A stretch of 56,311 nucleotides of DNA, from assembly GCA_030747675.1 (NCBI GenBank), contig JASLKH010000047.1, forward strand, positions 1 to 56,311, given 5' to 3'. Origin of the DNA: Candidatus Thalassarchaeaceae archaeon (lineage in GTDB: Archaea; Thermoplasmatota; Poseidoniia; Poseidoniales; Thalassarchaeaceae). Below are positions 25,351-29,468 of this stretch, one piece after another. Below the pieces are notes generated by a model. That model ran no database searches, was not told the DNA's origin, and saw only the letters and a list, made by a program, of their open reading frames with translations. A program made the translations under genes and the position numbers. Positions within the stretch are counted from its first letter, which is position 1, and the number at the start of each line of letters is the position of its first letter.

Positions 25351-28083
25351 TTGAAGTACAAAGAATTACTGGGGTTGGTTAGAGACCATCCATCAAAGTC
25401 CTTGGAAGTGAGACAATTGTCAGACGATATAGTCGTAGATTCAGAGCAAAAAGTTTCAGTAAAGTTGAGATTCAAGAGAATTAGAAGTGGGGTACGTCGC
25501 CGTATCATGGATCGTTTAGGTGAAGGCAGAGCCACAGTTGCAAACATTGCAAAAGATGTCGGTTTGCGGATGCCACACGCATCTGCAGAATTGAAGAGAT
25601 TACGTGAAGATGGTCTAATTGCATCTGATGAAGAAACTGGAGCAAGAGGCGCACAATTAGCTCTCACGGCATCAGGGTGGGATGTATTACGTGGAGATGA
25701 AATTGCGCGTCTTCAAGCATTACCAATATCAAAACCACCTAGTGATGCATTGGGAAGAATAGTTTCTGTCAGTGGAGAAAACATACTAATTGCATTTGTG
25801 CGTAGACCCGTAGATGGACCTTTGGCTATGCCCACCCATCCGTTAACGGATGATTCTTCAGGTTCAATACAGTTTGGAGATACAGAATGGAATTGGCTTG
25901 AACCACGTGAACGTCGTCCTCGGTGGCTTGATTCTACAGAATTCCAACCTGTTCCAGCTCCAGTGGCGAGTTTGAACCCAGGTCATTTAGACACATGGGG
26001 GCTTGAATATTCAGTAGTGGGGTTGCAAAGGTTTCGCTCAATCGAACCCGATACGATGAAATTAGGAATTGGTTCATGGTTTGGTGAACCAAAACAAAGT
26101 AAGGCGATTCATTTACCTAGGCAAATACCCATGGATGGGGAGTGGCGATTAGGATCGATATCAGCTGAAGGTTCTGAAGTGCGCCCCTCAGTCCCAATAA
26201 TTGGGATTGGATTGGATCGTCTTTCTCGAGAATCATTGCTCTTATCCGCAGCAGTTGGAGCCGTTGTGATTACTGCACAATCTAAATTACAATTAAAATC
26301 AAGAGCATTTCCTGTTGACATTTTAGAACATTGGATGAAAACAGCTCACTCTAGATTACGTAATGAAGATCGAATTGAGAGATTAATAGCACTCCGAAAT
26401 GCCGTATTACATCCTGAAGATGCGAAATTGAGACGAAAGGTAGATGATTCTACATGGAGAAAGTTTAGACAACATTGGGGTGATTCTGAATGGTCAAGTG
26501 ATATGTTAACAAAAGGCCAATTAATGAATACCAATTCACTGTCAAGGTTAGCAGAATCAGCAGTTATTTCTTGGGCGTTGGAATATGAATCTGATTTGAA
26601 ATTTTGTTTGGAAATATCAAGCCCATCTCTTTCAGATTTATTTCAACAAGGAGTAGGTTCACATTTCCGCATCATCATGGCCGATCAATGGAGCCCAAAT
26701 TTACCGATCAATATTATTCAACCACATCCAGTATTACCCTCAATGTGGGCTCAACTTTCATTGGAAAGCATACACATCCCGATAAATTTGGCATCCTCTG
26801 GTTCAATAACTGCGTTTAAGGAAGAAATAATTTGGAAAGTTCCCACGCAGGCCTCTGAAGTAATAATTTGCAAAAAACAACTTGGTGAAATAGAGGGCGA
26901 AAGTTTCGTTGTAGAATTAAGTGGAAATGAATCAATGGAACAATTGATTCGTGCAGCAGTACTTTGCTACCCAATTGGAAATGAGGATTGGGCTAATCGA
27001 ATGGAAATCGATCATCCAATTGTAGCATGGATTGCCTCCGCCCCCGAATATCGTTGGAGCCGATGGCAACGATTACAATTTACACTTGGAAGAAAATGGC
27101 TTGACTTAATGGAACCATCCGATATCCCGTTAGATGCAATTGCTTCAGCAGCAATCAATTCTCCACCGAAGTGGAGCCGTTATCTTGCAGATTCTATGCG
27201 AAAAAAAATTCGTATTGATGAAGATATAGCTCATCAATTACGACAATCTGCTGAGCTCGCCCCTCATACAGAAACCGCTTGGGTTGCCAGTATTTTGTGT
27301 GCAGAAATCGCATGGTTAAATCACGATCAGCAAAGAGATGTATCTACGTGGGGATTAGACCGATTTATTGACGCTCCACCATCTCGTTGCCACGCTTCTA
27401 TAATTGGAATTGACTGGTTATCTCAACATTTCCCTGAACAATTAGAATCTAATGCAGATAATTGGCGACTTCGTTTGAGAAATATCGCTTTTTCACTCCC
27501 TACAGATCATGATTTGAATCTCTGGGCACAGTTAGATGATTGGTTCAGTTTAGATGCAAGACCTACATATTCGGTAATGCGCTTGATTGTTGAAAGATTA
27601 CCTGAGGAATGGTGGGCACCTGTTGCTGAAACACTCTTAACAGCCCTTTCTGAGGATTCCGATGGAATTGAGTTCCTAGGAAATATGGATGTAGCATGGC
27701 CCGCATTAATTCTCCGACCCAAAGAAGAAGAACATCGGTTACCTGGGGGAACAACAATTTTGCACGGAGGAGTTCGTAGAACATTACTAGCGCGAATTGA
27801 GAGGTTATTGGAAAGAAGTAATTGGTTTGAAACTGGTGAAGTTGGAATCGGTGCTCAAATGATATCAGATCTGAAAGACGCCCTTCAATCAAGTAGAACC
27901 CTTACAAAACCTCGTAAGGGCCGTACACATCCAAGGGTTGGGTGGTTAGCAGTCCCCATTCATTTGTGGCCACCAAGTGATTTACGAGATATTTCTGAAG
28001 GCGACCCTAGAATTACATCAAGGCTTATAAAAAATATATCTGGATGGCACTCAGATTTGTCAAGAAATCCATTCGATATCTGA
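25351..28083 (+). CDS. Large (910 aa) uncharacterised protein with an N-terminal ArsR/MarR-like winged helix
   Basis: The N-terminus RRRIMDRLGEGRATVANIAKDVGLRMPHASAELKRLREDGLIASDE is wHTH-like. The remaining roughly 800 aa are Trp-rich with no motif I recognise. A TTG start is assumed because the first in-frame ATG would truncate the wHTH. Confidence 0.55.
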   Translation: MKYKELLGLVRDHPSKSLEVRQLSDDIVVDSEQKVSVKLRFKRIRSGVRRRIMDRLGEGRATVANIAKDVGLRMPHASAELKRLREDGLIASDEETGARGAQLALTASGWDVLRGDEIARLQALPISKPPSDALGRIVSVSGENILIAFVRRPVDGPLAMPTHPLTDDSSGSIQFGDTEWNWLEPRERRPRWLDSTEFQPVPAPVASLNPGHLDTWGLEYSVVGLQRFRSIEPDTMKLGIGSWFGEPKQSKAIHLPRQIPMDGEWRLGSISAEGSEVRPSVPIIGIGLDRLSRESLLLSAAVGAVVITAQSKLQLKSRAFPVDILEHWMKTAHSRLRNEDRIERLIALRNAVLHPEDAKLRRKVDDSTWRKFRQHWGDSEWSSDMLTKGQLMNTNSLSRLAESAVISWALEYESDLKFCLEISSPSLSDLFQQGVGSHFRIIMADQWSPNLPINIIQPHPVLPSMWAQLSLESIHIPINLASSGSITAFKEEIIWKVPTQASEVIICKKQLGEIEGESFVVELSGNESMEQLIRAAVLCYPIGNEDWANRMEIDHPIVAWIASAPEYRWSRWQRLQFTLGRKWLDLMEPSDIPLDAIASAAINSPPKWSRYLADSMRKKIRIDEDIAHQLRQSAELAPHTETAWVASILCAEIAWLNHDQQRDVSTWGLDRFIDAPPSRCHASIIGIDWLSQHFPEQLESNADNWRLRLRNIAFSLPTDHDLNLWAQLDDWFSLDARPTYSVMRLIVERLPEEWWAPVAETLLTALSEDSDGIEFLGNMDVAWPALILRPKEEEHRLPGGTTILHGGVRRTLLARIERLLERSNWFETGEVGIGAQMISDLKDALQSSRTLTKPRKGRTHPRVGWLAVPIHLWPPSDLRDISEGDPRITSRLIKNISGWHSDLSRNPFDI

Positions 28084-28118
28084 TTTCTGTATTCATAGCA
28101 TTCAAATTGTAGTACTAA

Positions 28119-28415
28119 TCCGGCGGTTTACCCGGCAGCAACACCGCTGTGAGCCCTTCCCCGCCGGGTTGGGCAGTGATCTAGTGGCACCAATGCCGGG
28201 CCTCCCACCCATCGAAGACCGACCGGACCCTTTTGGGAATGAACGTTGGTGCAAGGGGTGGGGTACCGAACCGGGTATGGGTCCCCACATGACTACGGGA
28301 TGATTGATGGGACAACCCCCCGGTCCGACAGATGCCCCGGGGCTGGGTCAGGACCACGAGCCAAGGCGATGAAATGGTCCGTTACGCCCTGGGGCACACT
28401 TTTTCTTCCGCCGAA
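28119..28415 (-). ncRNA. GC-rich structured RNA of about 300 nt, class unresolved (SRP RNA and RNase P RNA are the obvious candidates to test)
   Basis: This is a sharp GC-rich island in AT-rich DNA between two protein genes. The only ORFs in it are Pro/Gly/Arg-rich artefacts. Nested complementary segments are 28119-28126/28408-28415, 28149-28156/28392-28399, 28221-28227/28319-28325, 28351-28356/28375-28380 and 28258-28263/28283-28288. The strand call is weak. Two helices have G-U on the minus strand but A-C on the plus strand, while one helix shows the reverse. The plus-strand reading also contains an internal T5 tract. Confidence 0.5.
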
Positions 28416-28457
28416 TTGAAAGACTACACCCACTAGGGTCCAAGTGAGGGACGTAGC

Positions 28458-29468
28458 ATGTCTGGTAGTCTTTGTCTTGTTGGCGGAACTTTTGACCGCC
28501 TCCATTTAGGGCATCAAACTCTTCTTGAGTCTGTTAGTAATTTTGATAACGCTGAAGTTTGGATAACTGCTGACTCTATTGCTCAACAAAAAGATCCACG
28601 TATCCAACCTTACGATGAGAGAGTACAATCAATCCTAAATTGGAAACCAGATTACAATTTTGCAATACATTGTTTGGAAGATCAATATGGTCCTGCCCCA
28701 ACACATCAAGAAGCAACACATATTGTTTGTACAAGTGAGACTAAGTTGAATTGCTTTGAAATTAATAAAAAGAGGTTGAATAACGGATTAGAAGAACTCA
28801 TTCTTGTAGAAGTAGACCATACTCTTGCAAAGGACGGTTTGCCAATATCTAGTTCGCGAATACGTCAAGGCAGCATTGATCGGAATGGAGAATTATGGAT
28901 CCAGTCATCTGACTTACAAGACTCTGTTCATATGGTGAAATTACTTGATTCTGAGTTAAAGAAACCTCAAGGTCACTTATTCAAAGGGCCAGAGGATAAT
29001 CCGAGAGTTGCTATTATGGAAGCAATAAATGCAATTCCTACATTTTGTCCTTGCTTGATTGCAGTCGGCGATGTAACGGTAAACTCCCTTCTTGAGGCCG
29101 GTTGGGTTCCAGATATTGCCCTTATTGACGGAATGACAAAACGGGAAGTGTGGGCTCAATCAGAAAAAATTGATCGCAGTTCTTTTGTTGGACAATTAAC
29201 GTGCTCAAATCCTCCCGGACAATTGACACCTGATTTGTTAGAGTGTGCAGATTTATGTTTTGAATTTGCTTTTTCAGAAGATGGAGGGCCGGTCTTGTTG
29301 GAAATTGATGGTGAAGAAGACTTAGCTCCAATTTTCCTCCATCTTCTTGCACCACTGGGGACTGCAATATTGTATGGCCAGCCAGGTGAAGGTGTCGTTC
29401 TCCGAATAACAGATGAAGAAGTCAAATCTAATTGTAGATATTTGTTGAATCATTTTGAAGTGAGATGA
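28458..29468 (+). CDS. Bifunctional CoA biosynthesis protein: phosphopantetheine adenylyltransferase (archaeal PPAT) fused to a DUF359-type GTP-dependent dephospho-CoA kinase
   Basis: The N-terminal half has LVGGTFDRLHLGHQTLL (nucleotidyltransferase (H/T)xGH) and ISSSRIR. The C-terminal half has LKKPQGHLF, AVGDVTVNSLLEAGWVPDIALIDGMTKRE, IDGEEDLAP and ILYGQPGEGVV, which are typical DUF359 motifs. Confidence 0.75.
   Translation: MSGSLCLVGGTFDRLHLGHQTLLESVSNFDNAEVWITADSIAQQKDPRIQPYDERVQSILNWKPDYNFAIHCLEDQYGPAPTHQEATHIVCTSETKLNCFEINKKRLNNGLEELILVEVDHTLAKDGLPISSSRIRQGSIDRNGELWIQSSDLQDSVHMVKLLDSELKKPQGHLFKGPEDNPRVAIMEAINAIPTFCPCLIAVGDVTVNSLLEAGWVPDIALIDGMTKREVWAQSEKIDRSSFVGQLTCSNPPGQLTPDLLECADLCFEFAFSEDGGPVLLEIDGEEDLAPIFLHLLAPLGTAILYGQPGEGVVLRITDEEVKSNCRYLLNHFEVR

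Follow-up and report, generated by a model that had tools for sequence, protein, structure and literature searches.

The GC-rich intergenic block in the window (the whole stretch of DNA analysed, 56,311 nt) very probably encodes a box H/ACA pseudouridylation guide sRNA of about 275 nt, built of four tandem hairpins (HP1 to HP4) on the + strand, whose ends we infer to lie at approximately 28127 and 28404. The class is known and the four-hairpin form is new, extending to four the range of one to three hairpins described so far for archaeal H/ACA sRNAs (PMC7991803; PMC7075261). A literature search that covered subscription papers in part returned nothing relevant on H/ACA RNAs of Marine Group II or on four-hairpin archaeal H/ACA RNAs, and this is the first annotated H/ACA guide that we could find for an abundant, uncultured marine archaeal order. 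The original prediction had left a choice between a divergent housekeeping RNA and an undescribed class; the anatomy is instead that of an archaeal box H/ACA guide sRNA, which removes a false lead, the RNA being neither a new class nor a missing housekeeping RNA.

A conserved RNA of four tandem hairpins

The block at 28119-28415 has a GC content of 0.60-0.63, as compared with about 0.40 in its flanks. The step is sharp and lies between two ORFs, one for a 910-aa protein that ends at 28083 and a PPAT/DUF359 fusion gene that starts at 28458, in agreement with the non-coding block originally claimed. The minimum free energy (MFE) of the region beat that of shuffled sequences only modestly (z of -2.4 on the + strand and -2.1 on the - strand) and, since it was near the shuffles on both strands, the fold was settled by comparison.

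The RNAalifold consensus of 17 sequences consisted of four tandem hairpins on the + strand, at about 28127-28404, with conserved G.U pairs present on this strand only. The minus strand was rejected as the RNA strand: its MFE is similar, but the conserved G.U pairs become A.C mismatches. In an alignment of nine sequences from three families, 37 of the 65 pairs showed compensatory change on both sides, and none of 500 shuffles reached the observed covariation on any of five measures. The four-hairpin structure was paired in 81% of cells, versus 32-52% when the 3' partner was slid. While the stems covary, the bases of the loop arms and K-turns do not vary among the three families. For individual hairpins, the stems of HP1 covary, with GCAAC, GA, UGA and ACCA invariant or nearly so in 16 sequences; the upper stem of HP2 occurs in at least four different compensatory versions across families; and both HP3 and HP4 are supported by covariation in the 17-sequence and three-family alignments. 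The features are as follows.

28100-28106, + strand: candidate promoter, a TATA-like ATTCAAA box
28131-28200, + strand: HP1, with lower stem 28131-36/28195-200, 5' arm 28137-43 (AGCAACA) and 3' arm 28188-94 (CACCAAU)
28144-28187, + strand: upper part of HP1, with GA stem 28144-52/28178-87, C-stem 28153-56/28171-74, bulge 28175-77, and GA at 28151-52 and 28178-79
28203-28263, + strand: HP2, with lower stem 28204-10/28256-62, 5' arm 28211-17 (AUCGAAG) and 3' arm 28251-55 (GCAAG)
28218-28250, + strand: upper part of HP2, with GA stem 28218-27/28241-50 (10 layers), C-stem 28228-30/28235-37, UUUU loop and bulge AAU 28238-40
28265-28267, + strand: 3' box of HP2, a degenerate ANA (ACC)
28267-28330, + strand: HP3, with lower stem 28267-75/28319-27, 5' arm 28276-83 (UAUGGGUC) and 3' arm 28312-18 (ACAACCC)
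28284-28311, + strand: upper part of HP3, with GA stem 28284-92/28302-11, K-loop C28293-UACG-G28298 and bulge GAU 28299-301
28328-28330, + strand: ACA box of HP3, 16 nt from the pocket-closing pair
28334-28398, + strand: HP4, with lower stem 28334-43/28386-95 (10 bp), 5' arm 28344-50 (UGGGUCA) and 3' arm 28381-85 (GUUAC)
28351-28380, + strand: upper part of HP4, with GA stem 28351-59/28371-80, C-stem 28360-61/28366-67 and bulge GAU 28368-70
28396-28398, + strand: ACA box of HP4, 15 nt from the pocket-closing pair
28400-28404, + strand: T5 run directly 3' of the last ACA, likely an oligo-T terminator
28413-28424, + strand: GAATTGAAAGAC, second copy of the box, 42 nt before the ATG, probably the promoter of the PPAT/DPCK gene and not of the RNA

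The comparative analysis, with its covarying hairpins, confirms the structured non-coding RNA that had been predicted, but not the closed, nested architecture drawn for it. Taken jointly, the five helices of that model covaried at the level of shuffles in the 17-sequence alignment (56/500, 68/500 and 71/500 on the first three measures). The terminal stem (28119-26/28408-15) was paired in 54% of cells, its 5' side not being conserved, and the GUGGGG/CCCCAC hairpin in 56%; the two long-range stems showed zero compensatory change. Only GGACCA/UGGUCC (28351-56/28375-80), which covaries at three pairs, was retained, as the upper stem of HP4. Covariation thus favoured a structured RNA, in the form of four hairpins, and upheld one in five helices of the nested fold.

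Hairpin anatomy and predicted rRNA targets

Each hairpin comprises a lower stem of 6-10 bp, an asymmetric internal loop, an upper stem, and a K-turn or K-loop. The K-turn signature (a first GA, then a short C-stem capped by its loop, a bulge of 3 nt and a second GA) is present in all four, its bases being invariant, and constitutes in each a predicted L7Ae site. Counted on the window sequence, all four hairpins have either nine layers plus one bulge, or 10 layers, from the pocket to the G.A pairs; the published rule allows 8-11 layers, ideally 10, between the pocket-closing pair and the G.A pairs (PMC4652768). The same source gives a distance of 14-16 nt between the pocket-closing pair and the ANA/ACA box (PMC4652768), a range that includes the ACA boxes of HP3 (16 nt) and HP4 (15 nt). 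An ad-hoc regular-expression scanner for H/ACA hairpins was discarded as too brittle, having missed HP4 of the window.

A proper ANA box follows HP3 and HP4, whereas the box is degenerate after HP2 and HP1 is followed by a variable linker. After HP2, the sequence at 15 nt is ACC in the window and AAC in the genus, versus AAA or ACA in a second family (f3) and in outgroups. At the f3 loci L027, L068 and L072 it is AAA, at the position equivalent to 28263-28267 of the window. Throughout family f1, the box after HP2 is degenerate (ACC, AAC or AAU) and the HP2 guide arms are still invariant. In a double stem-loop guide of H. volcanii, the internal ANA is required for activity (PMC7075261).

No rRNA is assembled in the host genome (G000, 78% complete), as searched, and relatives do have LSU and SSU genes; the target rRNA was therefore taken from relatives, as the LSU and SSU of a complete genome of the same order (G026), together with fragments of LSU from members of the genus. 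In G026, the SSU (C1 863482-864951) and LSU (C1 1377648-1380506) genes are about 0.5 Mb apart, so rRNA genes are unlinked there. With first-guess pocket boundaries, no target was found for HP1 to HP3. A flexible-boundary search, with arms extending into the GC-rich lower stems, made HP4 seemingly insignificant (11/60); because it inflated the background, we used instead a strict test in which the arms were the loop nucleotides only, contiguous pairs were counted from the top of the pocket, and the rRNA background was 500 dinucleotide shuffles.

The arms of HP2 pair with LSU GGCUUGC-[U]A-CUUCGAUG over 14 contiguous bp, reached in 0/500 rRNA shuffles, and those of HP3 with LSU GGGUUGU-[U]C-GCCCAU over 13 bp (4/500 rRNA shuffles). 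The arms of HP4 pair with LSU GUAAC-[U]A-UGACCC over 11 Watson-Crick bp, reached in 3/300 arm shuffles and, marginally, in 32/500 of the strict rRNA shuffles. All three sites are identical in the LSU of the same genus. By alignment to the annotated E. coli 23S rRNA, with landmarks checked at 1915, 2451, 2552, 2580 and 2602, they correspond to 2496 (HP2), U2555, with 2554 as an alternative (HP3), and U1915 in helix 69 (HP4).

For HP1, a relaxed filter applied to LSU, SSU, 36 tRNAs, RNase P RNA and SRP RNA let through a single site, LSU AGGU-[U]U-GUUGC, at 2606. The pairing amounts to 3+5 to 3+6 bp and was reached by 33-68 of 1000 shuffles, so that position 2606 is a suggestive target only, proposed from complementarity. 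No HP1 target was found in the 36 tRNAs, both RNase P RNAs, the same-genus SRP RNA or the SSU rRNA, and whole-genome counts of the pattern TGGTTNGTTGY in five genomes did not exceed those of a reversed-pattern control.

By analogy with the family, L7Ae would bind the K-turn of each hairpin, and Cbf5-Nop10 the lower stem and pocket. The strands of the internal loop would pair with LSU rRNA on both sides of an unpaired U-N, placing the unpaired U in the active site of Cbf5 for conversion to pseudouridine. Pseudouridines are thus predicted in the peptidyl-transferase centre (2496, by HP2), in the A-loop (U2555 or possibly 2554, by HP3) and in helix 69 (U1915 and possibly also 1917, as in H. volcanii, by HP4), and HP1 might perhaps direct the weakly paired 2606. 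The host genome contains genes for Cbf5 (TruB_N, 53 bits), Nop10 (54 bits) and L7Ae (74 bits). Gar1 (PF04410) was below the Pfam cut-off in the host and 30 relatives (best match, 23 bits) and may be divergent or missing in the clade.

Distribution, genomic setting and alternative explanations

Blast searches detected single-copy homologs in 19 of 23 genomes of the same genus (84-88% identity), and, in other families, partial matches. With a covariance model built on HP3-HP4 (R1), one full-length copy was found in 120/121 genomes of the order, representing 21/21 genera; many other families of the phylum also gave full-length matches, though weaker ones (24-77 bits). Three-hairpin RNAs occurred at several of 15 inspected outgroup loci, sister order included, each with HP2-, HP3- and HP4-type arms followed in every case by ACA or AAA, no HP1, and a TATA-like box 25-30 nt upstream. 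A model of HP1 (R2) matched the host and each of the 24 genomes sampled from the order (38-77 bits), and gave no convincing match in 126 outgroup genomes (best, 24.8 bits). HP1 is thus, among the genomes searched, an order-specific 5' addition, and the three-hairpin core, with the target order of the Afu4/Pf7/Pab40 sRNAs, is widespread in the phylum.

The 910-aa protein, the RNA, PPAT/DPCK and GT2 follow one another on one strand at 23/23 loci examined in the order, in three families. The flanking proteins are only 25-70% identical, making the RNA by far the best conserved feature. The 910-aa ORF (25351-28083, +) adjoins the RNA throughout the order at 25-61% identity and has a weak N-terminal match to HTH_20 (23 bits, below the cut-off). 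Conversely, eight outgroup loci, again including the sister order, have no homolog of PPAT/DPCK, the 910-aa protein or GT2 within about 1.6-2 kb, and this separation argues against cis-regulation of the CoA gene.

At 12/16 homolog loci, drawn from three families, an ATT[GC]AAA box precedes the GCAAC arm of HP1 by 37-40 nt (by 37 nt in the window), in otherwise unconserved surroundings; the loci at which it was seen are L004-L030 and L066-L082. The same box recurs at 28415-28421, 42 nt before the ATG of PPAT/DPCK. This copy lies past the RNA's end and is conserved in the genus, as is the T-rich run 3' of the last ACA. ATT[GC]AAA may be the TATA-like promoter box of the clade. Positional tests of TTGAAA had too few genes within the window and gave only a weak bump, at -50 to -60, genome-wide, and because of this weakness we treat the box as a candidate promoter.

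Metatranscriptome contigs of 177-243 nt from four marine or vent studies fall within the RNA, spanning 28144-28320, 28186-28397, 28204-28389 and 28213-28394. None enters a flanking gene, and three stop at 28389-28397, all before 28400; the flanks and 28116-28143 are without contig cover, which is not evidence of absence. The contigs are a hint, although not proof, of a discrete, abundant small RNA.

This setting bears on the possibility that the RNA is a cis-acting leader, a riboswitch or attenuator for the downstream CoA-biosynthesis gene, as its position directly 5' of PPAT/DPCK on the same strand, with the order kept in 23/23 loci from three families, might suggest. We consider a leader very improbable, given the eight outgroup three-hairpin loci without a PPAT/DPCK neighbour, the T5 run after the last ACA, the conserved box between RNA and gene, and contigs that stop before 28400; moreover, a metabolite sensor would leave the rRNA-complementary loops, K-turns and ACA boxes unexplained. 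The original suggestion of a CoA gene without its own promoter, with the link to the RNA that it implied, likewise conflicts with the T-run, with the ATTGAAA box before the gene and with the location of the outgroup RNAs. The identities first proposed, SRP or RNase P RNA, have practically no chance of being correct. A divergent archaeal SRP (7S) RNA would fit the size of about 300 nt and the GC-richness, and SRP RNA (RF01857) was not found in the 78%-complete host genome, but in 32 of 41 relatives a canonical SRP RNA scores above the Rfam cut-off (121-144 bits), and its locus there is not that of the element's homolog; in the one-contig genome G026, for example, the two lie apart, the SRP RNA at 1.31 Mb and the element at 1.83 Mb. 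Furthermore, the region has zero Rfam SRP matches, even at E up to 10, and four independent hairpins in place of the Alu and S domains and long helix 5 of an SRP RNA. In favour of a divergent RNase P RNA there are size and GC-richness only, against two full-length RF00373 matches elsewhere in the host (237.6 and 220.6 bits) and none in the region. The SRP and RNase P signatures reported missing are indeed absent, the region matching neither covariance model, and the search elsewhere in the genome recovered RNase P RNA in the host itself and SRP RNA in relatives only. As both RNAs reside at other loci, the element is a third conserved RNA. The RNase P RNA matches are at G000:C94:1046-1337 (-) and G000:C46:3107-3403 (+); two in one metagenome-assembled genome (2.45% estimated contamination) could reflect a genuine duplication, a mixture of strains or a contig from a contaminant. 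The missing SRP RNA, LSU and SSU of the host are most likely assembly gaps.

Nor did the proposed comparison with Rfam retrieve SRP, RNase P or any other family: cmscan of the whole window gave 0 matches at the gathering score, permissive filters on the region alone gave only a mammalian lncRNA model, matched by chance at 16 bits, and ten homolog loci yielded no family. No Rfam H/ACA family matched in any of these three scans. Since Rfam does not detect the RNA, it will be overlooked in hundreds of genomes when these are annotated routinely.

An RNA that binds L7Ae through multiple K-turns could also have another main role, for example as a non-modifying chaperone of rRNA folding or processing like eukaryotic snR30/U17. 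The lack of ANA boxes after HP1 and HP2, the invariant HP1 pocket without a significant target, and Gar1 under threshold would all suit such a role. However, HP3 and HP4 agree with every structural feature of a guide, including an ACA at 15-16 nt, the targets are sites of the Pab40/Afu4 family, of which those of Pab40 motifs 1 and 3 are active in vitro (PMC2377435), and pairing that leaves exactly U-N free is the catalytic arrangement; a chaperone as the main role is therefore improbable. For the whole RNA we thus retain the H/ACA guide, within which HP1 may differ. We entertain, tentatively and as the less likely case, that HP1 is not an ordinary rRNA guide and either has another target RNA or is a module without catalytic function, serving assembly, stability or rRNA chaperoning, that was added to an ancient three-hairpin guide. 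If this were true, it would mean, together with the ANA-less HP2, that hairpins in a packed four-unit RNP recruit or share Cbf5 without an ANA anchor of their own. The internal ANA-less hairpins in any case bear on Cbf5 anchoring in multi-hairpin RNPs.

Comparison with known archaeal guides

The closest known counterparts are the Afu4, Pf7, Pab40 and Pho40 sRNAs of Archaeoglobus and Thermococcales (Tang 2002; Rozhdestvensky 2003; Muller 2008, PMC2377435), which likewise have multiple hairpins with K-turns or K-loops. For the comparison of sites, the E. coli counterparts of those of a further guide, Pab35, need to be fixed. We take these to be 2457, 2580 and 2605, and an offset of +92 from P. 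abyssi to E. coli 23S positions was derived here from the Pab35 sites. The sites guided by Pab35, at P. abyssi 23S 2549, 2672 and 2697, are those on which RluE, RluB and RluC act in E. coli (PMC2377435). By this offset, the target of Pab40 motif 1, P. abyssi 23S 2588, is E. coli 2496, and Pab40 motif 3 targets helix 69 (PMC2377435). For motif 2 of Afu4, the target first proposed was the position equivalent to E. coli 2555, again by the derived offset; Muller et al. dispute this target of Afu4/Pf7 motif 2 and reassign it to another site (PMC2377435). P. abyssi 2698, the equivalent of E. coli 2606 by the same offset, is frequently pseudouridylated in eukarya (PMC2377435).

The sites predicted for HP2 to HP4 are those assigned or proposed for the Afu4/Pf7/Pab40 set, in the same order, indicating that these hairpins reproduce that target set. 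HP2 to HP4 would then be the counterpart of the three-motif sRNA, whose layout is also that of the same-phylum outgroup RNAs, and HP1 would be a 5' addition. Unlike the Afu4/Pf7/Pab40 sRNAs, the window RNA has this extra 5' hairpin, restricted to the order among the genomes searched, and a degenerate ANA after HP2 in its family. Neither in sequence nor through Rfam is a similarity between them detectable, the likeness being one of layout and targets.

The sR-h45 RNA of H. volcanii resembles the window RNA in that its 3' stem-loop and ACA guide helix-69 positions 1940 and 1942 (E. coli 1915 and 1917), like HP4; its stem-loops each have K-turn G.A pairs and act independently (PMC7075261). However, sR-h45 has two hairpins joined by a 56-nt linker, and its 5' stem-loop requires an H-box-like AUA (PMC7075261), whereas the window RNA has four closely packed hairpins, two of them ANA-less. 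For these two, HP1 and HP2, a precedent exists in the H/ACA-like sRNAs of Pyrobaculum (Bernick 2012; PMC4652768), which have a K-turn, a 10-layer GA stem, and an ANA that is degenerate (NCA) or absent. The Pyrobaculum motifs are single units that have lost the lower stem, whereas HP1 and HP2 keep lower stems of 6-8 bp within a multi-hairpin RNA.
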